From Solirubrobacterales bacterium (GTDB lineage: Bacteria; Actinomycetota; Thermoleophilia; Solirubrobacterales; 70-9): a stretch of 24,000 nucleotides of DNA. Numbering within the stretch: position 1 is the first letter of the stretch; every line of letters begins with the position of its first letter. Both the position numbers and the translations under genes were made by a program. The stretch spans positions 47,843 through 71,842 of the forward strand of contig JADJRQ010000004.1 of NCBI GenBank assembly GCA_016712175.1, read 5' to 3'. The notes under the pieces are model-generated. The model worked only from the letters and a program-made list of their open reading frames with translations. It was not told the DNA's origin and ran no database searches. Below are positions 2,250 through 18,421 of this stretch, in pieces.

Positions 2250-2849
2250 ATGCCCGGCATGGCCGCAAACCAGGAGCATGCGATCGCAACATCCCACGCA
2301 GGGCACGAGATGCCGACCGGAGGCCGAGAGCTAACCACCCTTTCCGTGAGCGCCACCCTCCACTGTCTGACCGGATGCGCACTTGGCGAGATCGCCGGCA
2401 TGGCCATTGGAACTGCCCTCGGCTTCTCCAACCCTGGGACCGTGATCCTCTCGATCGTGCTCGCGTTCGCCTTCGGCTATAGCCTGACCAGCCTGCCCCT
2501 GCTCAAGTCCGGCCTCGCGCTGGCTACTGTCATCCCGATTGCCCTGGCCTCCGACACCTTTTCGATCGCGACCATGGAAGTGGTCGACAACCTGATCATG
2601 GTCGTCGTACCGGGAGCCTTGAATGCAGGACTGAACAGCATTCTCTTCTGGGGCTCGCTGTCGTTCGCGCTGGCGGTGGCGTTCGTCTTCGCCGTTCCGG
2701 TCAACCGTTGGCTGATCGCTCGCGGGAAAGGACACACCGCGGTTCACAAGACAGGGGTCCACGGCGGTCCCCCGGTCCGCCTGGTCGGAGCAATTACCAT
2801 CACGGCCTTCCTTTTCGGATCCGCGGTTCTACTCATGGAGGTGTTCTAG
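2250..2849 (+). CDS. DUF4396-like polytopic membrane protein with Cys/His metal motif
   Basis: ORF-track frame 2013..2849 trimmed to ATG 2250, because the upstream part overlaps the copA start and the operators. It has a His/Met-rich N-terminus (HAIATSHAGHEMP), the motif HCLTGCALGE that I associate with DUF4396, and several hydrophobic helices. Its stop TAG abuts the csoR ATG (TAGATG). Confidence 0.75.
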   Translation: MPGMAANQEHAIATSHAGHEMPTGGRELTTLSVSATLHCLTGCALGEIAGMAIGTALGFSNPGTVILSIVLAFAFGYSLTSLPLLKSGLALATVIPIALASDTFSIATMEVVDNLIMVVVPGALNAGLNSILFWGSLSFALAVAFVFAVPVNRWLIARGKGHTAVHKTGVHGGPPVRLVGAITITAFLFGSAVLLMEVF

Positions 2850-4410: not shown

Positions 4411-5184
4411 TCAGGATCCGGCCAGGGCACCTGAATACACCTGGATCGCCAGTGCGGTTTTCGCGGTGATACTCAGCCAGACGTAAACCTTCTCGGAGAA
4501 CAGCGGGTCCTTCCAGCGGCCGCGCCTGCGGTACGAGAGCCACATGTTGACCGCGAAGCAGTTGAAGAGAATGAACAGGGACACGAAGATCCCATAGACG
4601 AAGCCGGGAATGCCCCGGCCGCTGGTCTCGGCGAGGATGAACTGGATGATGATCGCGATCCAGGGAACCGCGCCGATCACGCAGCCAAGAATGAAAGGCG
4701 TCCAGTCGACGCGCTCCCGATCCAGATTGGCGCGCTCCATCACCAGGCCAAAGAAGATCATCGCCGCATTGGCGCCGAAGATGGCGATCAGGGCAGTTAC
4801 GTCCTTCACCCCGGTCAGCATCGCGATCAGCACAATCATCACGGACGCACTGATCGAGTACTCGTACCACCGGAAAGGGTTCTGTCCTCGCTCTACGTTG
4901 GACTCGTACCGTCCCCGGGCGACCGTTCCGACGACCAGGTGATCGACGGCCGCGAGCGCGAGGAAAAGGGCGACGATCAGATCGATCCGGAGATCAAATA
5001 TCTGGGTGCTCCCGTAGTCACCGGCGCCGGGTGGGCCGACCAGAAACGACCCGACCACAGGAAGGCTGACCGGTTCGGCCAGAACCAGGAGCACCACCAC
5101 CTGCACGGTGAAGAAAACAGCTGCGAACCGGTTCAGGCGACTGAGCCGGGCGAGAGAGCTTCGGGGTTCAGACTTGTCTGCCAA
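4411..5184 (-). CDS. Heliorhodopsin (7-TM retinal-binding protein, inverted topology)
   Basis: 257-aa ORF with TTG start 5184 (AGGG 5 nt upstream) and seven hydrophobic helices. It resembles heliorhodopsin 48C12 as I recall it, block by block. FLVGPPGAG matches YLNGPPGTT. NPFRWYEYSISASVMIVLIA matches NIFRWVEYSLSSSVMIVLIA and carries the counter-ion Glu. AIFGANAAMIFFG matches AIFGVNASMILFG. GCVIGAVPWIA matches GCIAGIVPWIG. IPGFVYGIFVSLFILFNCFA matches VPGFVYGIIISLFLFFNSFA. WLSITAKTALAIQVYSGAL matches VLSLVAKSALAWQIFSGTL and carries the Schiff-base Lys. Confidence 0.9.
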   Translation of the reverse strand: MADKSEPRSSLARLSRLNRFAAVFFTVQVVVLLVLAEPVSLPVVGSFLVGPPGAGDYGSTQIFDLRIDLIVALFLALAAVDHLVVGTVARGRYESNVERGQNPFRWYEYSISASVMIVLIAMLTGVKDVTALIAIFGANAAMIFFGLVMERANLDRERVDWTPFILGCVIGAVPWIAIIIQFILAETSGRGIPGFVYGIFVSLFILFNCFAVNMWLSYRRRGRWKDPLFSEKVYVWLSITAKTALAIQVYSGALAGS

Positions 5185-5218: not shown

Positions 5219-5620
5219 CTACTGACCTTCATTCACTTCGGAGGCCCGCTCGCGCACGTGGGCCTTTTCATCGATCGTCAACGCGCCCGGGTGTCCCCGC
5301 CCGGGCCAGGGCGTCAGCAGGAGCAGAAAACGCGAATCCTCATGCGCGTCAACGCGGTGACGCTCCGAGGGTTCAAACTCAACGAACAGGCCGGGTCCGC
5401 CAGAAACGCTTTCCACTGGTGATGACGCGAGTGCCGTGACTTCAAGTTCGCCCTGGACCACGACCAGCCAGGCCCGCTCATGCACTTCGTGGTCTTCCAT
5501 GCTTTCCCCGGCCGGCAAGTCGACGACGATCGCCCGCGCATCGTCGGTCGATTCAAGGATCTCGGGCTTCCGGGGCTGCGTATCCAGTTCGTTGATCTTC
5601 CAGGTCTTCACGACACCCAC
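5219..5620 (-). CDS. Small cupin-fold protein (putative)
   Basis: 133-aa ORF. Cupin-like motif regions are GESMEDHEVHERAWLVVVQGELEV and GLFVEFEPSERHRV. The start is GTG 5620 or GTG 5611 and no strong RBS is visible. It ends 34 nt upstream of the heliorhodopsin start on the same strand. Family call from pattern only. Confidence 0.6.
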   Translation of the reverse strand: MGVVKTWKINELDTQPRKPEILESTDDARAIVVDLPAGESMEDHEVHERAWLVVVQGELEVTALASSPVESVSGGPGLFVEFEPSERHRVDAHEDSRFLLLLTPWPGRGHPGALTIDEKAHVRERASEVNEGQ

Positions 5621-5699: not shown

Positions 5700-7580
5700 T
5701 TGCCCGGTGATAATTCGGCTGTGACGCCGACGGACCTCCTCGACAAAGACCGGCATTTCCTGCTCTCGCTGTCCATTTTCGCTGCGATCGTGGTCGGTGG
5801 AGCCTTTTCAATCTCGTGGAACGGCTCGGTTGCTGATCTGATCTGGGCCGTCGCGATCGTGGTGTCGATCATCCCGCTGACCATGAGCACGACCCGGAGC
5901 CTGCTGAAGGGTGACGTCGGTGTCGACGTCATCGCCCTTCTGGCCATGGCCGGCGCCCTGGCTCTCGGTGAATACCTGGCCGGCGCCGTGGTCGCGTTGA
6001 TGATGTCCGGGGGCGGTGCCCTCGAGGCCTACGCCGACCAGCGGGCCCGGCGGGAGCTGACCATGCTCCTGGAACGGGCGCCACGGGCAGCCCACCGCTA
6101 CCAGAATGACGCGCTCGAGCAGGTAGATGTCGAAGAGGTCGAAGTTGGTGATCTCGTGCTCGTTCGGACCGGCGAGGTTGTTCCGATTGACGGCACCATT
6201 GAGAGCGACGGGGCGATGCTTGACGAATCAACCCTCACCGGAGAACCTTTGCCCGTTCTCAGACACCAAAGGGAATCTGCTCGCAGCGGCATCGTCAACG
6301 CTGGATCTCCATTCGACCTGCGGGCGACACACCGCGCCGAGGACTCCACCTACAGCGCCCTGGTCTCGATCGTTCAGGCCGCCGAGCGCGAGCGCCCTCC
6401 ATTCACCCGGATGGCCGACCGCTACGCCGTCTTCTTTCTTTCCTTCACTGTGTTCCTGTGTGGCGTCGCCTGGCTGGTGAGCGGTGACCCCGTACGTGCG
6501 CTGGCTGTACTTGTAGTGGCAACGCCCTGCCCGCTGATCCTGGCCGCCCCGATTGCGATCGTCGCCGGTCTCTCGCGTGCCGCCAACCGGGGGGTGATCG
6601 TCAAGGGCGGAGGCACCATGGAACAGTTGGCCAATGCCCGGACCATGCTCCTCGACAAGACAGGAACACTCACCCTCGGCACCCCCGAGATCGAATCTGT
6701 CGAGACGATGGAAGGTACGGACCCGGATGAACTGCTGAGACTGGCGGCGTCGCTCGAACAGGCCTCGGCGCATGTTCTTGCCGAGGCGATGGTCAGGCAG
6801 GTGGCAATCCGCGGCGTGCTGCTCGAATCTCCGTCCGGCGTGGAGGAGGAGCCGGGTGGTGGAATCGACGGTCTTGTCGGCGGATATCGGGTCACGCTCG
6901 GTAGCCGGAGATATCTGAACGCCACGGGGATTCCGGTTGACCACGAAGGCCTCGACCGGCTGGAAGTGACGAGTGGACTCGGACAGGCCCGGATTGCCGT
7001 CGCCGTCGACGGCAAGTTGGCCGGAGTGATCCTGATGGGCGACCGGCTTCGCGACGACGCACCGACCCTGGTCCAGGACCTGCATTCGGAGGGGCTCACC
7101 GAAGTCGCGATGTTGACCGGCGACCGGGCCGAGATTGCCGAGGAGGTCGGGAAGCTGGCTGGCCTGGACCGGATTTACTCCGACCAGTCACCAGAGGACA
7201 AACTGGACGTTGTCCGCGAGTTCCTCGGGCGCCCCGAAGCCCGGCCGGTCGTGATGGTTGGTGATGGAGTCAACGACGCCCCGGCGATCGCTTCTGCCGA
7301 TGTCGGCATTGCGCTGGGAGCGGCGGGCGCGACAGTTTCCTCGCAAACGGCTGACGCCGTCATCGTGGTAAATCGCATCGACCGACTATTGGATGTATTG
7401 AAGATCAGCCGGAGAACGATGAGGATCGCCCGTCAAAGCGTCCTCGCCGGAATGGGCCTTAGCATCGCGGCCATGTTCTTTGCAGCTGCCGGATTCATCG
7501 AACCGGTTCAAGGCGCTTTGCTGCAGGAGGTAATCGACGTCGCCGTAATCCTCAATGCGCTTCGTGCACTGAAGGCCTGA
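5700..7580 (+). CDS. Heavy-metal P1B-type ATPase with a PCP transmembrane motif (P1B-5-like), no N-terminal metal-binding domain
   Basis: 626-aa ORF with LTGEPLP (actuator), ATPCPLILAAP (PCP instead of CPC), [22 protein letters not shown] and a last TM containing LLQEVIDV. No HMA domain, His-rich tail or hemerythrin domain is visible. Start is TTG 5700 or GTG 5721. Confidence 0.88.
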   Translation: MPGDNSAVTPTDLLDKDRHFLLSLSIFAAIVVGGAFSISWNGSVADLIWAVAIVVSIIPLTMSTTRSLLKGDVGVDVIALLAMAGALALGEYLAGAVVALMMSGGGALEAYADQRARRELTMLLERAPRAAHRYQNDALEQVDVEEVEVGDLVLVRTGEVVPIDGTIESDGAMLDESTLTGEPLPVLRHQRESARSGIVNAGSPFDLRATHRAEDSTYSALVSIVQAAERERPPFTRMADRYAVFFLSFTVFLCGVAWLVSGDPVRALAVLVVATPCPLILAAPIAIVAGLSRAANRGVIVKGGGTMEQLANARTMLLDKTGTLTLGTPEIESVETMEGTDPDELLRLAASLEQASAHVLAEAMVRQVAIRGVLLESPSGVEEEPGGGIDGLVGGYRVTLGSRRYLNATGIPVDHEGLDRLEVTSGLGQARIAVAVDGKLAGVILMGDRLRDDAPTLVQDLHSEGLTEVAMLTGDRAEIAEEVGKLAGLDRIYSDQSPEDKLDVVREFLGRPEARPVVMVGDGVNDAPAIASADVGIALGAAGATVSSQTADAVIVVNRIDRLLDVLKISRRTMRIARQSVLAGMGLSIAAMFFAAAGFIEPVQGALLQEVIDVAVILNALRALKA

Positions 7581-7642: not shown

Positions 7643-8761
7643 CTAGTAACGAAGAGTTGCGAGCACACCGCCTGCTTCGGCCAATGCCGGAACCTCTTCG
7701 GCCGAAGCTGAACTCATCCGGGCATCCGTGCGAAGTGCGACTTCGACCAGGGCTTCCTGGATCGACGCCTCCCCGGCATCTTCGATCGCCTGAATGGCAC
7801 CATCGGAGAGGATTTCGCTCTTGGTTTCGAGGTAGGGATCGAAAATCACGTGGCCGACCCGCCCTTCACTCAAAGCAAGAAGGGTCTCATCCGGGCCACC
7901 GGCGCCGCGATCGGCCGCTTTCACCCGGGCGAGCGCCTGATCGGCAACTGTGCCGACTGATTCGCGCCAGTCCTCGCGCAGTCGCTCGTCGAGATGCTCG
8001 GCGACGTCGGCCGACGTATGGTCGATCAGATTGATCGGAACGATTTCGATCAGGGATTCACCCAGCGGATCGGGCATCGAGCTTTCGAAATGGGATCCCA
8101 GCTCGCCGTCGGCGGCGACGATCAACCGGTCGTACCCGAGCTTGGAAACGGCGTCGGCGATGTCCGCAATCGAATCCGCCTGGAACTGGTTGCGCCACTC
8201 CTTGACCCGATCCATGAAGTTCACGATGTGCGCGCGAGTATCGTCGTCATGGGTGCCGAAATCGTCTTCCCTGTCCGAGGGCTCAATGTCTTCTGCGGTG
8301 CCGTCGAACCACTCGAGCAGCCGGATGTTGTCATTGCTCATCAAGACGATGCCGGTGCGCTGACCACGGTCAACTACGTCGACGATTGGCCAGACAACCG
8401 GGCCTGAATCGAAGGTGACAAAGCCGTCCCGGACGGGAATCTGGAAGGTGTGGAGTTCGTCGATCAAACCGTCTTCACTCAGGAAGCAGGCGATGCTCCG
8501 TCCCCTCTCATGGGCCGGCGTCTCCAGGATGCGGCGCTCGGCTTCTTCAGCCAGCCGCTGGGCCACCTTGTGGGATTCGTGGCCGGGATCGATCGCTTCG
8601 AGGGCATCCCTGATCCCGTTCTTCAGGCTGATCATCCAACCCGGGTGCTCGCCACTGTTCTCCGGTTCACGGGGATCGGTCCGGCAGAAAACCGAAAGAA
8701 CCTTTCCATCGGACTGCCGGTCAACCGTGTCTCGGAGCTGCTGAAGTCTGAAATCGTTCAT
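7643..8761 (-). CDS. Bacterial eRF1/Pelota-fold (baeRF / VLRF1-like) protein
   Basis: ORF-track 7643..8845 trimmed to ATG 8761, since MNDFRLQQLRDTV...KVLSVFCRTDP looks like the family N-terminus. The C-terminal third (ETLLALSEGRVGHVIFDP ... EALVEVALRTDARMSSASAEEVPALAEAGGVLATLRY) has the pattern of eRF1/Pelota domain 3. No GGQ or GGWSQ-type loop was seen. Call from pattern memory only. Confidence 0.55.
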   Translation of the reverse strand: MNDFRLQQLRDTVDRQSDGKVLSVFCRTDPREPENSGEHPGWMISLKNGIRDALEAIDPGHESHKVAQRLAEEAERRILETPAHERGRSIACFLSEDGLIDELHTFQIPVRDGFVTFDSGPVVWPIVDVVDRGQRTGIVLMSNDNIRLLEWFDGTAEDIEPSDREDDFGTHDDDTRAHIVNFMDRVKEWRNQFQADSIADIADAVSKLGYDRLIVAADGELGSHFESSMPDPLGESLIEIVPINLIDHTSADVAEHLDERLREDWRESVGTVADQALARVKAADRGAGGPDETLLALSEGRVGHVIFDPYLETKSEILSDGAIQAIEDAGEASIQEALVEVALRTDARMSSASAEEVPALAEAGGVLATLRY

Positions 8762-8893
8762 CGAAGGATCAAACCAGAACCGTGCCTGCGGGGCACTTCC
8801 CAAGCATCTCGAACCGATCGAGGGCCAATATGGTCGAAGATTCATGGATCGAGTCGAAACGGGCCGGGACCCGAATCCAGAAGGAGGTGACTG

Positions 8894-9505
8894 ATGGCAG
8901 TACTTTCCGCGGCGCTCATCGCTGCCTTCCTCCTGATTGTCTTTCCGCTCCGGTCGCTTCGCCGAAGGCTTCAGTTCGGCTCCGCCGCGCGAGCCACCTA
9001 CGGTCGGACCCGCCCACCGCTCTGGTGGGTGGCAGACCTGCTTTTCCTCGCCGGATTCGGACTTGTGCTGGCAGGGCCGATCTTGCAGATCGTGACCGAG
9101 ACGACGCTTCTGTTCGATCCGGTACCGGTCGTTTCCGTGATCGCCTTGACGGGGGTCGTGCTCGCCACGGGCCTGTCGGTCTGGTCCCAGGAGACCATGG
9201 GCGCCGCCTGGCGTCCCGACATCGGCCCGGCCGATCAGGCCGCGCTCGTGGCCACAGGTCCCTTCAGGTTCGTTCGAAATCCGAACTATGTGGCAATGCT
9301 GGCGGCAGCCTTCTGGGCCACATTGCTCGCTCCGACCCTCATCGGATTCGCAGGGGTGTTCGTCCTGCTCGTCAGCCTGGTTCTTACATCCAGGGCAGAA
9401 GAGCCTCTATTGATTCAGACCTACGGAGCGCCCTACCGGGAGTACGCCGCCAGGACAGGACGCTTTTTCCCGAGGATCGGCCTGATTCACGAAGACAGGT
9501 CGTGA
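8894..9505 (+). CDS. ICMT/PEMT-type membrane methyltransferase family protein
   Basis: 203-aa ORF with GGAGG 6 nt upstream of the ATG. It has multiple TM helices and the C-terminal motif GPFRFVRNPNY ... SRAEEPLLIQTYGAPYREY, typical of isoprenylcysteine carboxyl / phospholipid methyltransferases. Confidence 0.8.
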   Translation: MAVLSAALIAAFLLIVFPLRSLRRRLQFGSAARATYGRTRPPLWWVADLLFLAGFGLVLAGPILQIVTETTLLFDPVPVVSVIALTGVVLATGLSVWSQETMGAAWRPDIGPADQAALVATGPFRFVRNPNYVAMLAAAFWATLLAPTLIGFAGVFVLLVSLVLTSRAEEPLLIQTYGAPYREYAARTGRFFPRIGLIHEDRS

Positions 9506-9786
9506 CCTTTGCAGGCGGTGGGATCGGCCGGATCCTCGTCCAGCTTTTCGATTACCCGATCGGCAACCCCGGGCGCCGGTCGAAAGCTGACGGACTTCAG
9601 AACGTGGACCGTCTGTTTCAGCGACTCCAGCAGGCGATGGCAACTTTCGCATTCATCGACGTGGCGCCTGAGCCGGCTTCGCTCCTCCGGACCGAGCTGA
9701 CCATCGATCTCATCGGACAGATGTGACCTTGTCCAGCGGTGGTCGAGCAGGAACCCGGGCATCCTGATCAGCTTCCTGAAGGTCAT
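9487..9786 (-). CDS. Soluble zinc-binding anti-sigma factor (zf-HC2 / ZAS type)
   Basis: ATG 9786..9784 shares one base with the sigma-gene stop (TGATG). About 99 aa with no hydrophobic segment and the H-x3-C-x2-C motif (HVDECESCH). An extra Cys/His lies near the C-terminus (TACKGH). Confidence 0.7.
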   Translation of the reverse strand: MTFRKLIRMPGFLLDHRWTRSHLSDEIDGQLGPEERSRLRRHVDECESCHRLLESLKQTVHVLKSVSFRPAPGVADRVIEKLDEDPADPTACKGHDLSS

Positions 9787-10477
9787 CAAACGTCTCCTTC
9801 CACCAGTCCGGAGACCGCCGACCGGACCTTTAGCCGGGCCCGGTGGAGCCGGCTCTTGAAGGCCGCTTCGCCCACCGCCATGATGTCCGCGGCTTCGGCG
9901 GCGGACAACCCGTTCATGTCCCGGAGAACAATCGCCTGCCTCTGACCTGCCGGCAGGTCGGCGACTGCTTCGGAAAGACCTCGGCGTAGCTCCGAGATCT
10001 GGGCGCTGCGCGCGGGATCCGCAGTCCCCGAGGCGATGTCCCGGCCCGATTCGTCGTCGATCGAGAACGCCGAGCGCGACCGTCTGGTCGTCAGTTGAGC
10101 CCCCGGCGATTCGCTTCGTTCACACCGATCCGGTAGAGCCAGGTATAGAACTGGGATCGGCCCCGGAAGCTCGCAATCGACTTCCAGGCTCGAAAGAATG
10201 TCTCCTGAACGACCTCTTCGGCCTCATGCCCGGGACCGATCAGACCCGAGACCAGTCCGTAGAGCCGATCGGCGTGGCGCCGAACCAGTTCATCGAATGC
10301 GGCCCGGTCCCCTTCCTGCGCCCTCAGGACGAGCGGATCGTCTGTCTTCTCCCTCACCAAAGGCAGGTTAACAGGCGCCGGACAGCCGATCTTCACCTTC
10401 CTTCGCAGCACTCGCGGCGAAGTCAGGACACCGTCGCCGAACCCCGTGAACTCCCAGTCTGAGATCTCAGCTTTCAC
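9786..10477 (-). pseudogene. ECF (group 4) sigma-70 factor with an interrupted reading frame
   Basis: ORF 10091..10477 encodes region 2 (DDPLVLRAQEGDRAAFDELVRRHADRLYGL...ETFFRAWKSIASFRGRSQFYTWLYRIGVNEANRR) and stops at TGA 10093..10091. Region 4 (LPAGQRQAIVLRDMNGLSAAEAADIMAVGEAAFKSRLHRARLKV) continues in the -1 frame to TGA 9788..9786. The frames can be joined at the C5 run 10100..10104 (G5 on the coding strand) if one base is missing. GTG 10477 overlaps the upstream stop (GTGA). Confidence 0.7.
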
Positions 10478-11055
10478 GTGACTCCACTGGCCTGCTCCTC
10501 GCCTCCCTCTTGACGGGAGTTGCGGCGATTCAGGAGGTAGGCAATCGCGGTGAGGACCAGGACGGCCGCCACGGAGAGGATGAAGCCGATCGAAGTCGGG
10601 TCACGAATCGTGCTGCCCAGGGCGACGTAAGCGACGGTGCCCGGAACTATTCCGATCGCCGTCGCCAGTACGTAGGGGCGGAGTTCGATCCCGGTTACGC
10701 CTAGTGCATAGTTCGAGACGTTGAAAGGCGCGATCGGCAGCAGGCGAAGAATCAGAACCGAAATGAATCCGGTCCTCGTGAGGCTCTCGTCAAATCGAAG
10801 CAGGCGGGGTCCAAGGCTTGCGTGCACACGATCCCGCCCGAGATGCTGGGCGATCAGGTATGCGGCAGTCGCCCCGATCGTGGCTCCGATGACTGTCAGT
10901 ACCGACCCCCATACGGGTCCGAACAAAGCACCCGATGCCACAGTGGCGATTGAACCCGGAAAGAGAAGCATGGTAAGGACGACGTAGGCCAGGATGAAGG
11001 CGAGCGGGGCGAACGCGCCCGCCGAGTCGACCCAGCTTTCCAGTCCTCCGATCAC
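10474..11055 (-). CDS. TVP38/TMEM64 (SNARE-associated, DedA-superfamily) membrane protein
   Basis: 193-aa ORF whose GTG 11055 overlaps the upstream stop (GTGA). Core FPGSIATVASGALFGPVWG...GATIGATAAYLIAQHLGR...RLLPIAPFNVSNYALG is typical of this family. Multiple TM helices. Confidence 0.85.
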   Translation of the reverse strand: MIGGLESWVDSAGAFAPLAFILAYVVLTMLLFPGSIATVASGALFGPVWGSVLTVIGATIGATAAYLIAQHLGRDRVHASLGPRLLRFDESLTRTGFISVLILRLLPIAPFNVSNYALGVTGIELRPYVLATAIGIVPGTVAYVALGSTIRDPTSIGFILSVAAVLVLTAIAYLLNRRNSRQEGGEEQASGVT

Positions 11056-11651
11056 TTCAGCACCTTCACCGAAATGATCAGGCGCTGGACCACGGTGATG
11101 GTCACCATCCCGGCAAAGATCCAGGCGATCAGGGCGGCCTCTTCGGGCCAGATGCAGATGGCCGAGTAGGCGATCACGGTCTCCGTTCCTTCCGCGAGTC
11201 CTGTCGTGAACCGGAGGGATCGTTCGTCTCCAAAGTCAAGTGAACGTTTTTCGACCAGCGAGGCGAACGAGAGCAGGGCCACGTTGTTCAGCAGGTAGAC
11301 CGCGAGCAGGAAAGTACAAGCGATTCGAGCGTCCGGCACCGAGATCGCAACCGCGCAGATGAAGCCCCCGTAGACGACGAAGTCGGCCAGGAAATCCAGC
11401 ATTCCACCGAGGTCGGAAACGCTCCCTTGGCGTCGGGCGAGCACTCCGTCGAGACCGTCGAGGGTTCTGTTGAGGAGCCAGCCGGCGAGTGCCAGGCCCC
11501 ACTCACCGAAAGCGGCGGCGACACAGGCACCTATCCCTACGACGAGGCCGGCTGCCGTGACCAGCCCCGGACTGGCCCCGGCGCGGTCGATCGGTGCCGC
11601 AAAGACCTCGAGGACCGGCTGCAGTCTCGGGCGCGCGTAGCCGTCAAGCAT
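11052..11651 (-). CDS. CDP-alcohol phosphatidyltransferase family protein
   Basis: 199-aa polytopic ORF. It carries an exact D-x2-DG-x2-AR-x8-G-x3-D-x3-D signature (DGLDGVLARRQGSVSDLGGMLDFLAD). Its ATG 11651 overlaps the end of the radical SAM gene by 8 nt. Confidence 0.88.
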   Translation of the reverse strand: MLDGYARPRLQPVLEVFAAPIDRAGASPGLVTAAGLVVGIGACVAAAFGEWGLALAGWLLNRTLDGLDGVLARRQGSVSDLGGMLDFLADFVVYGGFICAVAISVPDARIACTFLLAVYLLNNVALLSFASLVEKRSLDFGDERSLRFTTGLAEGTETVIAYSAICIWPEEAALIAWIFAGMVTITVVQRLIISVKVLK

Positions 11652-13050
11652 CGGAGGCCGGTCCTGCCAGCGGAAGGAGGCGGGCGAGTGCGACGTTTTC
11701 CTCGGGATCCAGCACCGAATGCTGGACGCAGGCGGGGACCATGCGCCCCTCTTCCGGGTGAGCCATGCCGTACATGCAACCCTGAAGCCGTTCCTGGGCG
11801 GCTCGAACTTCGGAGTCTTCGCTCACCTGGCCTTTCTCCATGGCTTCCCAGGCTGGTCGGACCACGGCGGCGTCCATGAAGCTGTGCATCACGAAAGTGA
11901 CAGCTACCGGTCGGCTTCTGAGTATCCGGACCAGCCCACCCATGCGAGCTGACAGTCGAAGAAGGAACGGGACTGCGGCGGCGAGGGCCCGTGGCTCGCG
12001 TAACGCAGCACGGAGCAATTTCGCGACGAGGAGCCGGCGGCTTACGGTGAAATCGATCCCGCCAACCGAGCTGAGAAACAGGTCGCGCATCCGCACATCC
12101 CGCTGGTCTTTTTCATCGAAGAGGGTCCAGTAGCGCTCACCCGTGAACCCTCCGTATGCCGTCCTGTTGCACCTCGGGTCTCCCCACTGAATTGCCCCCG
12201 GGTGGAGTTGGCCTCCGGCCCCCTCCTGAATCCTTTCCCAGATCAAGTCGTCTTTCATCTCGCCGTACTTTTCCTTCCAACGGGCCTCGCTGCCGACGAA
12301 AGCCGCCGGCTGGAAGCTGAAGAGCCGAAAGCCCATCGATCGACAGGCCCGGATAACTCCCGGAATCTGATCGATATTCCCCGGAGTCACGGTCATGTTA
12401 TGCGCCAGGAAGCTCGTTACTCCGTGCTCGATCTCGAGCGTTTTGAACATCTCGCAGAAGTTCTTCCGGTAGGGATTCAAGTCCGACTCCTTTTTGACTT
12501 TCCTGATCCCCTTGCGGCCGTGCATGGTCATGTCGAAGTGTCCGGCGAAACTGAGATGTGAAAACCGCGGCTTCCCGGTTGCCGGATCGAGTGCGAGCTT
12601 CTCCAGGTACTCGTAGTTGAAGTCACCATGGGTCATGGACATCGGCTTTCGGCCCTGGTTGATCATCGTCTGAAGCGATCTGGCATGGGCTTCGGGTCCG
12701 AGCAAAGTGACCTCGCCGCCGATCAGCTGGGCGGCCTGTCCCGGGCCCCTGATTTCGTTTGCGAGTTGCATCTGTGAATCAACTTCGCGAACGGTGTGTT
12801 CCGCGTCGATCCGGACACGATTCGAATCTTTCGAGTGATAACAGGGTGTACAGGCCAGATTGCATCGGGGGAAGACTCCATGCGTCCCTTCACAACCCGT
12901 CACCCGCCGTCCCAGAAACTGGTTGGGAGTGCGAATCGCTTCGGGGATCTCCCGCCAACGACGCTCCAGGGCAGTTTTCAGCTCCGGGGGTTCCGGCCTC
13001 GACCTCTGCTCGATAGAGCGAAGCCGTATCCGTAGGTTCCCGAGGGTCAT
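11644..13050 (-). CDS. Radical SAM enzyme of unassigned subfamily
   Basis: 468-aa ORF starting at ATG 13050. CX3CX2C (CNLACTPC) lies at residues 63-70 (12841..12864) and is followed by the GGE motif (LIGGEVTLLG). The long C-terminal region ends in a Cys pair within QGCMYGMAHPEEGRMVPACVQH. Confidence 0.85.
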   Translation of the reverse strand: MTLGNLRIRLRSIEQRSRPEPPELKTALERRWREIPEAIRTPNQFLGRRVTGCEGTHGVFPRCNLACTPCYHSKDSNRVRIDAEHTVREVDSQMQLANEIRGPGQAAQLIGGEVTLLGPEAHARSLQTMINQGRKPMSMTHGDFNYEYLEKLALDPATGKPRFSHLSFAGHFDMTMHGRKGIRKVKKESDLNPYRKNFCEMFKTLEIEHGVTSFLAHNMTVTPGNIDQIPGVIRACRSMGFRLFSFQPAAFVGSEARWKEKYGEMKDDLIWERIQEGAGGQLHPGAIQWGDPRCNRTAYGGFTGERYWTLFDEKDQRDVRMRDLFLSSVGGIDFTVSRRLLVAKLLRAALREPRALAAAVPFLLRLSARMGGLVRILRSRPVAVTFVMHSFMDAAVVRPAWEAMEKGQVSEDSEVRAAQERLQGCMYGMAHPEEGRMVPACVQHSVLDPEENVALARLLPLAGPASDA

Positions 13051-13090
13051 GGTCTAGTAGACCCCCGTGGTGCCAGAACGGTTCGGGCCA

Positions 13091-13861
13091 TCACCGGACG
13101 CGTCCAGCGCGGTTGGCGGCAGCAAGCGCGAGGACGGCAGGAACCAGAAACAGGAGCGAAAGGGCCGCGGCCACCTCAAAGTCGCTGCCGATGAAAGGGA
13201 GCAACACCACAGGCAGGGTCGGACTTCCACCGGAAATCGCAAGTGAACTGCCGTACTGGCCCCACGACACCAGGAATGCCATCAGTGCTGCGAGAGCAAG
13301 AGTGGGCCGAGTCTCCGGCAGGGTCACCATCAGCAACCTGCGCCAGGGTCCGATCCCCATCGACGAGGCCATCTCTTCCGATAGCCGGAGTCGCCTGCTG
13401 AATCCGGTGGAAAGCACGAGGACCGCGTAAGGGAGCGAGAAGACGATGTGCGCGAGGACCAGACCGGCGACGGAGTCGGTCAGTCCGAGCCGAACGAACC
13501 AGCCGGTCATCCCGGTGCCGATGGCAAACGGTGAAATCAATATCGGGACCGCGAGCAGAAGAACGACCGGCCCGGGGTGGCGCAATCTACGCTCACCGAT
13601 CACCCTGGCAGCTGGCCAGGCCAGAAGAAGCGAAACGGCCGTCACCACGAAAGCGACCAGCAGCGACCGGGTAAGCGCCACCCCCGCCCCGCCACCGGCA
13701 AATCCGTCCCGGAAACCCCGCAGGCCAAACTCCTGCGGGATCAGCGACGGTGCGGTCCAGCTGTCGGCGAACGCCTGAAGCACCAGCACCAAAAAGGGCA
13801 GGGAGAAGGCGAGGACGACCGTCGTTCTCAAGGCCCCACTCATGCGGCCGCTGTTACGCAT
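13091..13861 (-). CDS. ABC transporter permease (second membrane subunit)
   Basis: ORF-track 13091..13906 trimmed to ATG 13861, which overlaps the upstream stop (ATGCGTAA). Six hydrophobic helices and an EAA-loop-like LSEEMASSMGIGPWRRLLMVTLPETRP. Confidence 0.8.
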   Translation of the reverse strand: MRNSGRMSGALRTTVVLAFSLPFLVLVLQAFADSWTAPSLIPQEFGLRGFRDGFAGGGAGVALTRSLLVAFVVTAVSLLLAWPAARVIGERRLRHPGPVVLLLAVPILISPFAIGTGMTGWFVRLGLTDSVAGLVLAHIVFSLPYAVLVLSTGFSRRLRLSEEMASSMGIGPWRRLLMVTLPETRPTLALAALMAFLVSWGQYGSSLAISGGSPTLPVVLLPFIGSDFEVAAALSLLFLVPAVLALAAANRAGRVR

Positions 13862-14687
13862 CCGATCTCCGTTGTCGTGAGGCGAGCGCCAGGATTCCAA
13901 CGGCAAAAGCGATCGAAGCAGCCGCGCCGACGAGTAGTGCCGCTGCCGCCTCGCCGGCCCCCGAGATCGCGTCAGTCTGGGTCACCTCGAGGGCATAGGT
14001 TCCGATCGTCGGCGGATAGTTCGGGCCGACTGCAAGCGGGACCTCGAAAGCGCTGAAGACAAACGCCGTGACGATGATCGATCCGATTCCGAGGGGCACA
14101 CGAACAGCGGGCCAGATGACCCAACGCAACCTGGCCCACCTTCCCATCCCGTGGACAGCAGCCATTTCGTTTTGCTCATCGAGACGACGACCCATTACCG
14201 CCAGAAGCAGCAGCACAAGAAAGGGCGTCTCCTTGAACAGGTAAACCAGCACGATGCCGAGTCCGGCCTGATCACGAACCAGATTGATCGGCAGGGAGCC
14301 GAGCACACGATCCGCCAGACCGCCTGGAGCCAGCCAGAGTACGGCCACGACAGCAACGATCATGTGCGGCACGGGGACCGGAAAGGCAGCCGCGGTACGG
14401 GCCGCGCTGGACCCCCTCCTCATTAGCGACGCAATCACCAGGGCGAGGAGCGCCGCGAGGACCGTGGCCATGGCGGTGGTGAGCAAGGTGAAGACCAGCG
14501 CGTCACCGAACACCGGATCGCCGAAAACTGACCGCCAGTTGTCGAGCGACCAGGAGTCGAGCCCACCCCCGAGTGGTGGAGTAAAACTCTGATCGACCGC
14601 CCCTGCCAACGCACCCCCGAACAGCAACACCGTGGCCGTAACCGCCGGCGCCAGCATCGCGGCATTTCGCCAGGCCGGCTGCTTCAC
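13854..14687 (-). CDS. ABC transporter permease (first membrane subunit)
   Basis: 277-aa ORF whose GTG 14687 overlaps the ATPase stop (GTGA). EAA loop is DEQNEMAAVHGMGRWARLRWVIWPAVR. Confidence 0.8.
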   Translation of the reverse strand: MKQPAWRNAAMLAPAVTATVLLFGGALAGAVDQSFTPPLGGGLDSWSLDNWRSVFGDPVFGDALVFTLLTTAMATVLAALLALVIASLMRRGSSAARTAAAFPVPVPHMIVAVVAVLWLAPGGLADRVLGSLPINLVRDQAGLGIVLVYLFKETPFLVLLLLAVMGRRLDEQNEMAAVHGMGRWARLRWVIWPAVRVPLGIGSIIVTAFVFSAFEVPLAVGPNYPPTIGTYALEVTQTDAISGAGEAAAALLVGAAASIAFAVGILALASRQRRSDA

Positions 14688-15697
14688 CCTGCGGGTATCC
14701 GCCAGAGTTGGGGCTCAGGCAGCGAGACTCCGACTTTCGAACCGACTGCCGGTGAGACTTCTGCCTGAACATGCGCTTCGAGCACGCTCTGTTCGCCCTT
14801 CAGGATGACTCGGACGTGAGTGCCCAGATAGACCGCTTCGATGGCGGTCATCTCAACCTGGCCACCGTCGCCGATGACCACTGCTTCAGGGCGGATGGAA
14901 AGAGTCACCTCACCGTCCGGCCCTTCGACTGCGATCTCCGATCCTTCGAAAGCAAGGTGGCCGTCCTTGACCATCCCGTGGATCAGGTTCAATCCGAAGA
15001 AGCGGGCGGTGCGTTCAGTTTGCGGACGCCTGAACATCGATTCCGGGTCGTCGCTCTGCAGGATTGTGCCGGCGATCAGGAGGGCGATGACCTGGCCCAT
15101 CTCGGCAGCCTCGGCCCGGTCGTGGGTGACCGACACCGTCGTGACCCCGCGGTCCTCCTGCAGCTGGAGGATGAGGTCCATCAACGAGGAGCGGCGATTC
15201 GGATCGACCGCCGAGAGCGGTTCATCCAGCAGGAGCAGTTCGGGTTCGGCGCATAGTGCCCTGGCCAGGGCCGCACGCTGTTGTTCGCCGCCGGAAAGGC
15301 CCTTCACGCCTCCTCCGGCGAACTCCCCCAGGCCGACTTCCTCAATCAACTCACGAGCGCGGCTTCGGCGCTCCTTTCGCGGAGTCCGCTGCGCGACAAG
15401 ACTGATGGCCACGTTGTCGAGCAGGTCCAGGTGGTCGAGCAGGCGGGGTTCCTGGAAAACCACCGCACAACCTCGCCGGTGAGCGGGCAGTGCGTCGATC
15501 CTCTTGCCCCCCAGGCTGATCGAGCCCCGGTCGAGATCCTCAAGACCAGCGATCGACCTCAGCAACGTCGTCTTGCCGGCACCGGAGGGACCGACGATCA
15601 CCGTTCTCGATCCCGCCTCGGCTTCGAACGTGAGGTCGTGGAGAATCTCGTCTGATCCCGGCGAGACAGCGATGCCTTCGCATTTCAGTCCCTCTAT
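14684..15697 (-). CDS. ABC transporter ATP-binding protein (PotA/FbpC/YnjD-like with C-terminal TOBE-like region); 5' end unresolved
   Basis: Walker A GPSGAGKTT, signature LSGGEQQRAALARAL, Walker B LLLLDEPLSAVD and H-loop VTHD. The track ORF starts at GTG 15601, directly at Walker A, which is too short. The frame stays open upstream to TGA 15757..15755 and encodes a normal N-terminal strand (IEGLKCEGIAVSPGSDEILHDLTFEAEAGSRTV), but contains no ATG/GTG/TTG. See findings. Confidence 0.8.
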   Translation of the reverse strand: MEGLKCEGIAVSPGSDEILHDLTFEAEAGSRTVIVGPSGAGKTTLLRSIAGLEDLDRGSISLGGKRIDALPAHRRGCAVVFQEPRLLDHLDLLDNVAISLVAQRTPRKERRSRARELIEEVGLGEFAGGGVKGLSGGEQQRAALARALCAEPELLLLDEPLSAVDPNRRSSLMDLILQLQEDRGVTTVSVTHDRAEAAEMGQVIALLIAGTILQSDDPESMFRRPQTERTARFFGLNLIHGMVKDGHLAFEGSEIAVEGPDGEVTLSIRPEAVVIGDGGQVEMTAIEAVYLGTHVRVILKGEQSVLEAHVQAEVSPAVGSKVGVSLPEPQLWRIPAG

Positions 15698-16880
15698 CGC
15701 TGCACCTGCTGGATCCAGGCATCGTCGATCTTGCTCACTTCGGCTACCGGAAGCTCATTGAGCGGTGTGCCGAGTGACTGAAGGAGGAAAGGGCTTTCGG
15801 TGGGCGCAAGCTTCGCGGCCTGGGCCTCGTCCAACCTGTCCGGATCGAGGACTGAGAGCATTCCGACGATCTTCGGATCCTGCATCCTGGCCTGGATCGA
15901 CGGGTCGAGAAGCAGGTTCGCAACCACCTGGGCCCCTTGGGGACTGGAGGCATTCGCCGGGATAGTCACGAAAGATGCGTTCTGTAGTGCTCCGTCGCCG
16001 ATCAGAAAGGGTCTGGTGGAGTCCGGGAACTGACCCTGGAGGACGGCGTTGTCGATGAAGTTCGAGTTGTAGCTCATCGAAAAATCTACTTTGCCGTTTG
16101 CGAACAGCTGGCTCAGTTCCTGTTCTGACTTCGGCTGAATCTTGCCTTCTGCATACGTCAACGGTTTCAATTCCCTCAGATAGGCCGTAGCCGCTTCCGT
16201 CGAGCCTAGCCGCTGAACCACCTGCCTGACAAAGGCTGAACCGGTGAAGTCGGGTGGGGCCGGATACGCAAACCGGCCCGGGTTCTCTTTCGCATACTCG
16301 AGAAGTTCAGGGAATGAAGAAGGCGGCTCGGATGCAACCTTTTTGTCGTAGGCGAAGACGAATCCCGCCCGCGACCAGGGTGACTCCTGACCATCCACGT
16401 CAACCCCGAAATCCTGTGAAAGAAGGGGCGATTCGGCGTCGGTCAACTCCCGGTTGGGCAGGCCTTCGGCCCAGTCTTTTCGCCACAGGCCGACCTCCTT
16501 GCCGCTGGCGAAGTTCTCGCCGTTGATCCAGATCAGGTCGACGCCGCCGCCACTGCTCTTTCCTGCTCGCTCCTCCGCGACAACCCGTTTCACGGCATCG
16601 GCGGTGTCGGCTATCGGCACCCGGACCAGCCGCACCCCCTCCTTTGAAGCCGCAGGGGTCACCACGTCGTCAACGAAGGCGTTGAACCTGGGATCTCCGC
16701 CATACATCCACCAGCGAACGGTCTGCCCCTGAGCTTCACTGGCGATATCACCGAAGCTCGCTGTGGATTCCGAGAAATCGCCAGACGAGTCGTCAGAACC
16801 ACCCGAACCGCATGCCACGACGGTCACGGCCAGTAGCGCTGCGACGACCAGGCCAAAGTTTTTAGGGCATTCAGTTTCAT
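15694..16880 (-). CDS. ABC transporter substrate-binding lipoprotein (YnjB-like); 5' end frame-shifted
   Basis: The 377-aa track ORF starts at GTG 16827, inside a lipobox (MTVVAC). Its frame is open upstream and reads ..CPKNFGLVVAALLAVTVVACGSGG. ATG 16880..16878 (MKLNALK..) is one base out of phase and the two frames join at the T5 run 16859..16863. The body contains DLIWINGENF and other features I associate with YnjB-type binding proteins. Confidence 0.75.
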
Positions 16881-16912: not shown

Positions 16913-18421
16913 TCAGGACCGGCGGGTCAGGTCGTGAAGGCGACGCTTCAGGGCCAGGACGGGCTTGATCAGCGCCCGGTTTCTTGGCGTAAGAAATTGA
17001 GCCGAAACGTATTCATTGGCGGCCCGGGATGCTCCTTCGGCCATGGTCGGATACGCGTGTACCTGTCTGGAGATATCGCTGATTCCGGCGCCCTGATTGA
17101 TCCAGGCTGCCATCTCGGCGATCGCGTCTCCGGCACCTTGAGCTGCGATCGTGGCGCCGACCAGCCGGCCCTTCCTGTCGCCGATCAGCTTGGCGAAACC
17201 GGATGGACGTCCGTCGACGATGGCCCGGTCGAGATTCTCGTAGTCGAACTGGACGATCCGGACTTTGTCACCCCATCGCGATCGTGCTTCCCCCTCGCTC
17301 AGGCCGACCCTCGCGACTTCCGGATCGGTGAAGGTGGCCCACGGGACCGACGAATAATCGACCTTGGTGCGAAGTCCGAATACGGCATTTGGGGCGGCGG
17401 CCCTTGCCTGCTGAGCGGCCACATGCGTGAAGGGCATGACCCCCGTGACGTCACCCACCGCGTAGATACCGCTTGCCGAAGTCTTCATCCGGTTGTCGAC
17501 TTCGATCGAGCCCCCGGCATTCACGGCAACCGAAACTGAATCGAGCCCGAGCTCACTTGTTCTCGGAGACCTGCCGACCGCAACGAGGAGGTGGGTTCCT
17601 TCCCAATCATGCGAGTCACCGTCTTCTCCTGAAGATCGCATTCGAATTCCGTCCGGGCTCGATTCAACGCCGGTCACGGTGGTTCCGGTGACTGCATCGA
17701 TGCCTTCGGACTCGAATGCCCCGGTCACGAGACGGCTGGATTCGGGCTCCTCGCGCGGCAGCAACCGGTCATCTGCCTCAATGATCGTCACCTCTGAGCC
17801 GAGGCGGGAGAAGGCCTGACCTAGCTCACAACCAATCGGGCCTCCGCCGATCACGGCCAGACGGTCGGGCAGGTGTTCCAGATCCCAGATCGAGTCGGTC
17901 GTCATCGGCCTCGACTCCCGCAGCCCCGGTACCGGTGGGATGACCGGCGCCGAACCGGTCGCGATGATGGCCGAACGGAACTTCAGCTCGGTGTCGTCGA
18001 CCAGCAGCCTTCCAGGACCGGTGAATCTTGCGTTGCCTTCGATTACATCCACGCCCTCCCGGCGCAGGCGTTCCGGGGAATCGTGAGGCTCAATCGTTGA
18101 CTGGGCGGCCCGGACCGAGTCCATCACACTCGAAAAGCCGACGTCCGGCTCGACCGAAGCGATGCCGAACCGATCGGCCCGACGCATCTGGTGGGCCGTG
18201 CCTGCGGCCGCCAACAGCGCCTTGCTCGGCACACAGCCGGTCCACAGGCAGTCGCCCCCGGTTCGCTCTCGCTCAATCAGGGCAACCCGGGCTCCAGCTC
18301 CGGCTGCGATCAAGGAGCTGATCAGGCCACCGGTTCCTCCACCGATCACTACGAGGTCATATTTTCGATTCTTCAGGCTGATGGTGTCATTTGATTGCCT
18401 AATCCCCACTCCTGGGCACAA
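16913..18421 (-). CDS. Class I pyridine nucleotide-disulfide oxidoreductase (dihydrolipoamide dehydrogenase / mercuric-reductase-like)
   Basis: FAD GxGxxG (VVIGGGTGG), redox-active CLWTGC in GGDCLWTGCVPSK, NAD(P) GxGxxG (AVIGGGPIGCE) and the interface motif HAYPTMAEG, followed by a ~40-aa C-terminal extension. There is no NmerA domain and no C-terminal Cys pair. The exact start is uncertain (TTG 18421 or GTG 18409). Confidence 0.85.
   Translation of the reverse strand: MCPGVGIRQSNDTISLKNRKYDLVVIGGGTGGLISSLIAAGAGARVALIERERTGGDCLWTGCVPSKALLAAAGTAHQMRRADRFGIASVEPDVGFSSVMDSVRAAQSTIEPHDSPERLRREGVDVIEGNARFTGPGRLLVDDTELKFRSAIIATGSAPVIPPVPGLRESRPMTTDSIWDLEHLPDRLAVIGGGPIGCELGQAFSRLGSEVTIIEADDRLLPREEPESSRLVTGAFESEGIDAVTGTTVTGVESSPDGIRMRSSGEDGDSHDWEGTHLLVAVGRSPRTSELGLDSVSVAVNAGGSIEVDNRMKTSASGIYAVGDVTGVMPFTHVAAQQARAAAPNAVFGLRTKVDYSSVPWATFTDPEVARVGLSEGEARSRWGDKVRIVQFDYENLDRAIVDGRPSGFAKLIGDRKGRLVGATIAAQGAGDAIAEMAAWINQGAGISDISRQVHAYPTMAEGASRAANEYVSAQFLTPRNRALIKPVLALKRRLHDLTRRS

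Follow-up and report, generated by a model that had tools for sequence, protein, structure and literature searches.

Two types of radical S-adenosylmethionine (SAM) enzyme acting on phospholipid tails, together with a set of clustered Escherichia coli genes (ydjXYZ-ynjABCD-ynjF), are the described systems closest to the locus reported here, which lies in a 24,000-nucleotide stretch from a Solirubrobacterales bacterium (GenBank assembly GCA_016712175.1, contig JADJRQ010000004.1, positions 47,843 to 71,842; 59-65% G+C). We call this whole stretch the window. In the first type of enzyme, Tes (GDGT-MAS), a C-terminal [4Fe-4S]C cluster captures the substrate radical via a C-S bond (PMC9433317; PMC13459092); Met439 is a labile ligand of this cluster, and the protein further holds a rubredoxin-like Fe site (C9X2C12X20C33X2H36) and a [4Fe-4S]N cluster bound by C73, C77, C80 and a His (PMC9433317). 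The second type, Mss, has been reported with the Tes catalytic architecture (PMC13274423; PMC13159169), and Tes homologues and Mss do not explain all producers of membrane-spanning lipids (PMC13159169). The E. coli ydjXYZ-ynjABCD operon is an FNR-activated member of the FNR regulon (PMC3688515), and the DedA proteins of COG0398 are putative phospholipid scramblases, whose commonest domain fusion is to PF07992/PF02852 oxidoreductases (PMC10127716). We find that a conserved but uncharacterised set of genes is present in the window, arranged as in one lineage. Recurrent in this module, and forming its core, are a YnjF-type cytidine diphosphate (CDP)-alcohol phosphatidyltransferase, a Tes-like radical SAM enzyme, a flavin adenine dinucleotide (FAD)/NAD(P)H disulfide oxidoreductase and a COG0398 DedA protein, and these four genes are repeatedly encoded together in two phyla, Actinomycetota and Gemmatimonadota. 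The window's clade adds to this core a YnjBCD-type importer and a cytoplasmic pair of zinc-containing anti-sigma (ZAS) and extracytoplasmic function (ECF) sigma factors. Our tentative reading, which we place a little short of an even chance, is that the module makes a dedicated phospholipid and then modifies it by radical chemistry, under thiol-redox control.

The ten genes and one associated element are listed below in minus-strand order, 5' to 3'; here and later, genes are on the minus strand unless stated otherwise.

16913..18421, minus strand: FAD-dependent pyridine-nucleotide disulfide oxidoreductase with a CLWTGC redox-active site (Pyr_redox_2 218 bits, Pyr_redox_dim 92).
15694..16880, minus strand: YnjB-type ATP-binding cassette (ABC) substrate-binding lipoprotein, its frame broken in the signal peptide at an A5 run (PRK11622 382.5 bits, cutoff 203).
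14684..15697, minus strand: YnjD-like ABC ATPase with no canonical start codon (BLASTP against YnjD, E=3e-22).
13854..14687, minus strand: ABC permease resembling the N-terminal half of YnjC (BLASTP to YnjC 37-231, 32% identity, E=3e-20).
13091..13906, minus strand: ABC permease resembling the C-terminal half of YnjC (Pfam BPD_transp_1; weak match to YnjC 370-507).
11644..13050, minus strand: radical SAM enzyme of a remote Tes/GDGT-MAS-like family (468 aa; CNLACTPC, that is CX3CX2C).
11052..11651, minus strand: YnjF-type CDP-alcohol phosphatidyltransferase (199 aa; PF01066 44.7 bits, cutoff 22).
10474..11055, minus strand: COG0398/TVP38-type DedA membrane protein with a VTT domain (193 aa; PF09335 101.8 bits, cutoff 33.9).
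10363..10374, minus strand: conserved CTGTTAACCTGC element, with little or no variation among the window and the related loci L089 and L004; it lies 5 nt upstream of the probable sigma start.
9786..10357, minus strand: ECF sigma factor with a -1 frameshift in the G-run at 10100..10104 (Sigma70_r2 and Sigma70_r4_2 in different frames).
9487..9786/9789, minus strand: soluble ZAS (zf-HC2) anti-sigma factor (100 aa; PF13490 38.9 bits, cutoff 22.2).

That these genes form a module is seen in their repeated linkage, which was counted in two sets of related loci (numbered with the prefix L), one centred on the transferase and one on the radical SAM enzyme, with genes detected by tblastn (E<1e-6, at least 50% coverage). 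The transferase-centred set has 84 loci. Among the 49 that span at least 6 kb, the radical SAM gene is present in 34, the oxidoreductase in 33, a YnjB-like gene in 24, DedA in 18 and the sigma factor in 13, and of the 59 loci whose upstream sequence reaches at least 1.5 kb, 31 carry the radical SAM gene directly upstream of the transferase on the same strand. The original prediction had taken the five genes from the radical SAM enzyme to the anti-sigma factor for a self-contained operon, a view that these counts do not bear out, since the oxidoreductase and the YnjBCD-type importer are equally regular partners. It had also singled out the radical SAM/transferase/DedA triad as the unit to look for in other genomes; the radical SAM/transferase pair does recur, DedA joins it less often and the linkage extends to Gemmatimonadota, but the full triad is found in only about 9 of the 49 loci. 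Gene order is shuffled between clades while the gene set is kept: L002 reads sigma-antisigma-rSAM...transferase-ABC-reductase (rSAM, radical SAM), L087 reads ABC / DedA-rSAM-X-transferase...reductase-antisigma-sigma, and many metagenomic loci read rSAM-transferase-ABC-DedA / reductase. A first unsupervised clustering of neighbouring genes was swamped by long spurious open reading frames (ORFs) of high-GC DNA, and the clustering was redone with a filter on codon-position GC.

Seen from the radical SAM side the picture is different, in that a YnjF-type transferase lies within 10 kb in only 10 of 83 loci (one genome per species). We set aside the idea that transferase linkage is therefore rare, as a sampling effect of one large Solirubrobacterales clade: in a tree of 123 radical SAM sequences this clade occupies a different gene context, which accounts for the low figure, and the YnjF context is found in the window's clade and in all more distant Actinomycetota clades. 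Most Solirubrobacterales copies of the radical SAM gene, viewed from this side, sit in another cluster. The second context, seen in L001, L009, L016, L029, L030 and about 50 other Solirubrobacterales loci, comprises a TIGR04283 'arsenosugar biosynthesis' glycosyltransferase (199.8 bits, cutoff 182), a fusion of a metallophosphatase with an Rv1681-like radical SAM domain, a further FAD oxidoreductase (389 aa), often a divergent CDP-alcohol (CDP-OH) transferase with the motif DGx2ARx7Gx3Ex3D, and in some loci also MMPL and an MTAP-like phosphorylase. When the loci of both contexts are pooled, 77 of 122 show a CDP-OH transferase, of either type, within 6 kb of the radical SAM gene.

A distant branch within the radical SAM family (31% identity) comes from Gemmatimonadota. 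In L169, which is ordered transferase - rSAM / DUF547 - reductase - DedA, the best matches to the window proteins have 37% identity for the transferase, 31% for the radical SAM enzyme, 41% for the reductase and 38% for DedA. Other Gemmatimonadota loci carry DedA-reductase and DUF547-rSAM, or DUF547-rSAM only, and the ABC importer is not part of the module in this phylum. A DUF547 gene always adjoins the radical SAM gene here (9379..10203 in L169; also L171, L172 and L173/L174), and the L169 product has a signal peptide and a VCAAMGCPP (CxxxxC) motif.

The radical SAM protein gives the module its most informative homology. It is 100% identical to a protein annotated in a metagenome-assembled genome of Solirubrobacterales (Thermoleophilia, Actinomycetota), and an exact-match lookup of it gave no record. 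Its CX3CX2C motif (C63/C67/C70) is invariant in 26 sequences, down to 26% identity, as are C53, C294, C425, C441 and H389, making seven invariant Cys in all. Pfam PF04055 stays below threshold (21.5 bits, cutoff 29.5), and the protein is placed in the radical SAM superfamily by the invariant motif and by a core fold that matches many radical SAM structures in Foldseek. The NCBIfam matches at E<0.01 are TrsS (19.4 bits, cutoff 490), Tes (16.7, cutoff 450) and viperin (17.1, cutoff 180), all confined to the cluster motif; an identity as TrsS was considered and dropped, because the 19-bit match covers the cluster motif only and the literature gives TrsS no function. A single-sequence search against PDB sequences returned only a spurious RecD match, and a profile was needed. 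The profile of the family, which has thousands of database relatives, finds GDGT-MAS/Tes as 7tol_A with E=1.1e-16 over profile positions 54-442, the second-best match being SkfB at only E=1e-4. Structure comparison agrees: the AlphaFold (AF2) model (pLDDT 91, pTM 0.90) has 7TOL as its top Foldseek match (E=2.5e-13, 460 columns, TM 0.53), and other radical SAM structures align over a core of about 240 residues only. The original prediction had left the type of the radical SAM enzyme unassigned, had proposed an HMM comparison with lipid radical SAM enzymes and had named RiPP (ribosomally synthesised and post-translationally modified peptide) maturases and cofactor enzymes as examples of non-lipid families that would speak otherwise. 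The comparison points to a lipid enzyme, by full-length similarity to Tes, and no HpnH, SPASM, RiPP-maturase or cofactor-family model in Pfam or NCBIfam matches the protein.

The similarity extends to the part of Tes that handles the substrate radical. HMMER aligns C294, C425 and C441 with GDGT-MAS cysteines that may be the cluster ligands, and the invariant H389 falls on Met439 (7tol_A chain numbering is native numbering plus 20, owing to a tag) and is followed, as in GDGT-MAS, by F-M-D. The family may thus have retained a Tes-like catalytic C-terminal [4Fe-4S] site. At the other end, only about 50 residues, with one conserved Cys (C53), precede the radical SAM motif, and the profile alignment to 7tol_A begins at chain residue 110, about native residue 90. 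Because the rubredoxin and N-terminal cluster domains are absent, the protein is, as judged by profile and fold, a remote and trimmed homologue of Tes/GDGT-MAS along its full length and not a Tes orthologue.

The transferase carries the exact and invariant motif D68-G-x2-A-R-x8-G-x3-D-x3-D90, so the CDP-OH signature reported earlier holds, and its hydropathy profile has five hydrophobic segments. It is 34% identical to E. coli YnjF over 202 residues, the full length (E=6e-28), and shares with it 51 invariant columns that include a GLTEGTET motif. This similarity and the linkage to a YnjBCD-type transporter place it in the YnjF subfamily. None of PgsA, PssA, Pcs, PIPS, AIPS and ClsA is matched at its NCBIfam equivalog cutoff (AIPS 54.3 bits, cutoff 180; PIPS 32, 170; PssA 31, 107; PgsA 23, 109), and PDB profile matches to solved structures reach only E~1e-3, in the motif region. 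The neighbouring membrane protein is, as had been claimed, a member of the DedA superfamily. With its VTT domain it is closest to YdjX (32% identity, E=8e-32) and YdjZ (32%, E=3e-24) rather than to UndP flippases, which assigns it to the COG0398/TVP38 branch, and it scores 18.9 bits against the UptA equivalog (cutoff 250).

From the homologies, domains, conserved residues and linkage we infer a lipid substrate, a type of bond, a role for the reductase and a direction of transport, as follows. The transferase would combine a CDP-activated donor with an alcohol into a dedicated phospholipid, and in the window's clade the importer may supply the alcohol as a precursor. The radical SAM enzyme would then abstract a hydrogen atom from a hydrocarbon chain of this phospholipid and use its putative C-terminal [4Fe-4S] site to make a new C-C bond, like that formed by Tes, or a C-S bond of the kind seen in the Tes intermediate. 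The disulfide oxidoreductase could serve a thiol/disulfide step tied to the radical SAM chemistry, the DedA protein could redistribute the lipid product across the membrane, and the ZAS/sigma pair would make expression responsive to cytoplasmic thiol or redox stress. In favour of a modified phospholipid, Tes, by profile and fold comparison the only full-length relative of known function, acts on phospholipid tails. Further points in favour are the recurrent gene linkage, the clustering of YdjX/YdjZ, YnjBCD and YnjF in E. coli, the putative scramblase role and oxidoreductase fusions of COG0398 DedA proteins and, for the redox side, the soluble HxxxCxxC anti-sigma factor and the redox genes beside related loci.

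We speculate further, and with considerably less confidence, since we regard it as improbable, that the radical SAM family belongs beside the Tes homologues and Mss as a third kind of bacterial enzyme that couples lipid tails, one that works in aerobes and forms, at a Tes-like C-terminal cluster, C-C bonds (giving macrocyclic or membrane-spanning lipids) or C-S bonds (giving thiol-bearing lipids) on a phospholipid made by the YnjF-type transferase. If this were true, the product would become, through the reductase and the DedA protein, a lipid system that is redox-active or spans the membrane, and Solirubrobacterales, Acidimicrobiia and Gemmatimonadota would be unrecognised makers of unusual soil membrane lipids. 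For the making of membrane-spanning and other tail-modified lipids in oxic soils this Tes-like family, from presumably aerobic soil bacteria, is a concrete candidate, tied genetically to a phospholipid head-group transferase and a scramblase-type protein. The module also offers a way to begin approaching the function of the E. coli ydjXYZ-ynjABCD-ynjF genes and of the widespread DedA-oxidoreductase fusions, and if its product should prove not to be a lipid, it would still define a conserved redox-linked pathway.

Several points weigh against a radical-modified phospholipid. The chief weaknesses are that no product has been observed, that identity to Tes is low, that the role of the reductase is unexplained and that the importer points towards a substrate that is soluble. 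The family shares only about 17% identity with GDGT-MAS, with the NCBIfam Tes model (NF045702) as far below its cutoff as noted above, and since the family lacks the rubredoxin and [4Fe-4S]N domains, its substrate and reaction could differ entirely from those of Tes. We know of no established role for a class-I disulfide reductase in Tes- or Mss-type chemistry. The host lineages of the family are presumably aerobic bacteria. Mss, by comparison, is found only in anaerobes and is active only anaerobically (PMC13159169). On the side of the transferase, the YnjF family matches no characterised equivalog, and E. coli has YnjF, YdjX/YdjZ and YnjBCD without a radical SAM enzyme; our literature searches on ynjF, ynjB-D and ydjX-Z found no functional study. 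CDP-alcohol transferases also make non-lipid phosphodiesters. As to linkage, the full triad is as infrequent as stated, DedA is present in only about a third of the loci, and in two of four Gemmatimonadota loci DUF547 alone accompanies the radical SAM gene. The frequencies are not unbiased, since a query gene and its homologues defined each of the two locus sets, and many metagenomic contigs are short.

The importer is where a soluble product has to be considered. The binding protein is 36% identical to E. coli YnjB (E=8e-69), and its homologues all have a lipoprotein signal peptide. One might expect that the module imports a polar compound, joins it into a soluble phosphodiester by means of the YnjF-type enzyme (compare DIPP synthase) and modifies this with the radical SAM enzyme, the membrane proteins serving transport only. 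The binding protein's YnjB/PRK11622 class would fit, as would the nearest NCBIfam transporter models, which are for phosphonate, polyamine and thiamine and all score below cutoff, the weak matches of the transferase to the IPCT/DIPPS and AF2299 types, and the fact that no lipid has been observed. So would the HAD-family phosphatase genes that L088 and L003 carry at the binding protein, either fused to it or beside it. We nevertheless consider a soluble product unlikely, because the one full-length homologue whose function is known acts on lipid tails, COG0398 DedA proteins have been connected with phospholipid scrambling, roughly half of the loci and the Gemmatimonadota version lack the importer, and the radical SAM gene is linked to two different types of CDP-OH transferase in two clades. 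In L088 the HAD-family hydrolase is fused to the YnjB-like protein (12203..14068) and in L003 it is adjacent (129..833); this would fit a phosphorylated intermediate.

The importer's ATPase raises a separate question of annotation. Its frame is open back to an ATA codon at 15697..15695, which overlaps the TAG stop of the binding-protein gene (GATAGAG); this junction is gap-free and conserved in the window, L004 and L089, none of which has an ATG, GTG or TTG start there. The ATA may be a non-canonical start, or the ATPase may be translated by termination and reinitiation. A further frameshift at this point was considered and rejected, as the alignment to the two relatives is free of gaps and all three lack a canonical start.

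The oxidoreductase is of the class-I type. In NCBIfam it matches PRK06370.1-3 (470 bits, cutoff 620) and MerA (387 bits, cutoff 454), both below cutoff, and it lacks the C-terminal Cys pair of MerA. The regularity with which a disulfide reductase accompanies the module, equal to that of the radical SAM enzyme, raises the possibility that the module is mainly concerned with handling of, or defence against, thiols, chalcogens or metalloids, with lipid chemistry secondary. Examples would be a sulfur insertion that yields a thiol compound kept reduced by the FAD reductase, or an organo-arsenic or -selenium lipid, and there is overlap with the C-S variant of our own proposal. Genes for glutaredoxin, redoxin, DsbD, DsrE and AhpC-TSA_2 occur as neighbours in related loci, where glutaredoxin, rhodanese, DsrE, DsbD and peroxiredoxin-like neighbours would all suit such a role, although these redox neighbours differ from locus to locus. 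MerA itself (535 bits, cutoff 454) and a DF-family selenoprotein homologue occur in related loci, but the window's reductase, wanting the Cys pair, stays under the MerA cutoff. The second Solirubrobacterales clade contributes the TIGR04283 glycosyltransferase and the MTAP-like phosphorylase, yet the TIGR04283 and YnjF contexts coincide in 0 of 122 loci. The anti-sigma regulator is of the ZAS type, the E. coli cluster holds an AhpD-like YnjA and a rhodanese, YnjE, and GDGT-MAS forms a C-S adduct with its own cluster, all of which would agree with thiol chemistry. There are also two heavy-metal P-type ATPases in the window, which on the other hand contains no arsenic or selenium gene (ArsM, ArsS, SelD). 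On balance a primarily thiol- or metalloid-directed function seems doubtful to us, and a modified phospholipid remains our preferred product.

We turn to the regulatory genes, where the original prediction was in part correct. It had described four overlapping junctions and five ORFs. Three overlaps are read directly from the sequence: ATGCTTGA at 11651..11644, an 8-nt overlap, between radical SAM gene and transferase; GTGA at 11055..11052 between transferase and DedA; and TGATG at 9788..9784 between sigma and anti-sigma. The fourth, GTGA at 10474..10477, between DedA and sigma, is probably not a real coupling site. Likewise the radical SAM, transferase, DedA and anti-sigma ORFs stand, and the sigma gene is split over two frames: the ORF that carries region 2 (10091..10477) runs into the stop codon TGA 10093..10091, and region 4 follows in a different frame (9786..~10100). 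As a start, the GTG at 10477 is simply the furthest upstream that could be used. About 100 nt past the DedA stop are unconserved in DNA and protein among the window, L089 and L004, and conservation then begins sharply at CTGTTAACCTGC-N5-GTG, an onset that places the sigma start probably at GTG 10357..10355, about 116 nt past the DedA stop, with room for a promoter of its own. The CTGTTAACCTGC element is a possible candidate for the promoter -10 region of a leaderless or short-leader transcript, or for a leader element; as it occurs once in the window and is not repeated there, a regulon is not definable from it. Scans of the window for sigma-70 promoters and intrinsic terminators gave matches no more numerous than in shuffled sequence, and Rfam and tRNA scans gave none.

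The anti-sigma factor had been described as envelope-type, which does not agree with its sequence: the maximum 19-residue Kyte-Doolittle mean is 0.35, that is, there is no membrane segment, and it is therefore taken to be a cytoplasmic ZAS protein. Its zinc motif, HxxxCxxC, is H42/C46/C49, as read from the sequence, and it scores 28.8 bits against the RsrA equivalog (cutoff 62.5). A scan for SigR-type sites (GGAAT-N16-19-GTT) found one intragenic match, the chance expectation, and none upstream of the cluster genes. The claim that the cluster has its own sigma/anti-sigma pair is right for the close clade, where the pair is linked in 11 of 15 loci with a transferase at least 60% identical, and wrong beyond it, where 2 of 34 have it. 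Related loci show a further variation: the L085/L086 sigma is 289 aa, and an extra HxxxCxxC (zf-HC2) stretch occurs in related loci besides the separate anti-sigma gene. Such a stretch is coded upstream of sigma in L091, L095, L097, L109, L128 and L137. Fusion of a ZAS domain to sigma is a possible explanation.

Taken together, the earlier picture of a self-contained, coupled five-gene lipid operon under an envelope-stress sigma/anti-sigma pair is one that we regard as very unlikely. Three of its overlaps are real, its five genes are co-linear in the window, L004 and L089, and the pair accompanies the cluster in most close loci. Short gene overlaps are frequent in high-GC operons, however, and those found here are compatible with co-translation; they do not prove stoichiometric expression. 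The same-strand unit extends upstream of 13050, with the four-gene ABC transporter ending 40 nt before the radical SAM start and the FAD oxidoreductase preceding the transporter, and these upstream genes are conserved partners. The absence of a membrane segment in the anti-sigma factor, the probable separate start of sigma and the lack of the pair in 32 of the 34 more distant loci all tell against it as well.

The sigma gene and the binding-protein gene are both broken, and one might ask whether the cluster is decaying and no longer functional in this genome. Two frame breaks within 7 kb would be in keeping with decay, but each is a 1-nt loss in a homopolymer run, G6 to G5 at 10100..10104 in sigma and A6 to A5 at 16859..16863 in the binding protein, and thus has the look of an error. 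The close relative L089 has G6 and an intact sigma gene. The A5 run separates the ATG and the beginning of the signal peptide from the rest of the binding-protein gene; restoring A6 gives MKLNALK|NFGLVVAALLAVTVVAC, a signal peptide of lipoprotein type. Losses of a single base in homopolymers are a typical mark of sequencing or assembly error, and because two of them fall within 7 kb, error is favoured over decay. GC content at third codon positions (GC3) and codon-position GC are gene-like throughout the cluster, the other cluster genes of the window are intact, and relatives carry intact versions of both broken genes. Both breaks are thus probably assembly errors, which would leave the sigma gene intact if the G5 break is one, and we think decay extremely improbable. 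Other reading frames of the contig may also be affected by such homopolymer errors.

Upstream of the oxidoreductase lie two genes that are loosely associated with the module, both identified with Pfam.

18399..19145, minus strand: tandem USP.
19358..20536, minus strand: DUF3179.

DUF3179 adjoins the oxidoreductase in L003 and L091, and in the systematic count only in 1 of 49 loci. On the other side, a membrane methyltransferase of PEMT/ICMT type (8894..9505, plus strand) converges on the anti-sigma gene, the 3' ends overlapping by 19 nt. It stands beside the module in the window alone, and its association is therefore probably fortuitous. Just downstream of the cluster is a baeRF family 10 protein (7643..8845, minus strand) with similarity to the family of the ribosome hibernation factor MSMEG_1130, at 131.6 bits and well under the cutoff of 480. 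Further genes of the flanks are two heavy-metal-type P-type ATPases, one with an HMA domain (1..2170, minus; 5700..7580, plus), DUF4396 (2013..2849, plus), the DUF3179 gene already given (19358..20536, minus) and a CHASE2-adenylate/guanylate cyclase (20570..22267, minus); a P-type ATPase with HMA is also found beside the radical SAM gene in L172. A heliorhodopsin gene (4411..5184, minus; PF18761, 293 bits) lies beside a small cupin gene (5219..5620).

Having set out the module, we compare it with the systems named at the start and with a few others. The original prediction saw no described pathway here. This is partly so: the transferase/DedA/ABC part corresponds to the E. coli ydjXYZ-ynjABCD-ynjF set, which is annotated and uncharacterised. 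In E. coli K-12, ydjX, ydjY, ydjZ, ynjA, ynjB, ynjC, ynjD, ynjE and ynjF lie side by side, and homologues of YnjF, YdjX/YdjZ, YnjB and YnjC/YnjD are clustered in both genomes. The E. coli region differs in having no radical SAM enzyme, FAD disulfide reductase or ECF/ZAS pair, and in having YdjY (4Fe-4S ferredoxin-type), YnjA (AhpD-like) and YnjE (rhodanese). The transferase shares its signature motif and a small, all-membrane architecture with PIPS and AIPS, its best though weak NCBIfam matches, but it scores far below their cutoffs and belongs to the YnjF subfamily with GLTEGTET. The regulatory pair is like SigR-RsrA in setting a small soluble HxxxCxxC anti-sigma factor beside an ECF sigma factor, with redox genes nearby; it differs in that the probable first zinc ligand is His and not Cys, in the sub-cutoff RsrA score and in having no GGAAT-N18-GTT promoter upstream of the cluster genes. 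Literature searches on arsenosugar-lipid genes and on branched glycerol dialkyl glycerol tetraethers (brGDGT) in these taxa gave nothing usable for comparison.

As in the COG0398 DedA-oxidoreductase fusions, the window pairs a COG0398 DedA with a PF07992/PF02852 oxidoreductase in one cluster, though here the two are encoded by separate genes, in company with those for a radical SAM enzyme and a CDP-OH transferase. Mss of Thermotoga and Thermoanaerobacter, which we compared by literature description only, resembles our proposal in being a radical SAM enzyme that acts on phospholipid tails. With Tes/GDGT-MAS (M. jannaschii MJ0619, PDB 7TOL/7TOM) the family has in common the CX3CX2C radical SAM core, the full-length profile and fold similarity, a C-terminal domain with three aligned Cys, a His389 at the position of Met439 and the FMD motif. 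It departs from Tes in lacking two parts of the four-domain architecture (rubredoxin and [4Fe-4S]N), in its extra invariant Cys53, in its presumed aerobic hosts and in its genetic tie to a CDP-OH transferase, a disulfide reductase and a DedA protein. Set against these systems, the protein superfamilies are already known, as is the annotated and unstudied ydj/ynj part of the gene set; what is new is that a separate family of radical SAM enzymes, related to Tes but reduced in architecture, can be recognised, that this family is tightly linked to CDP-OH transferases, and that a four-gene core is found in two phyla.

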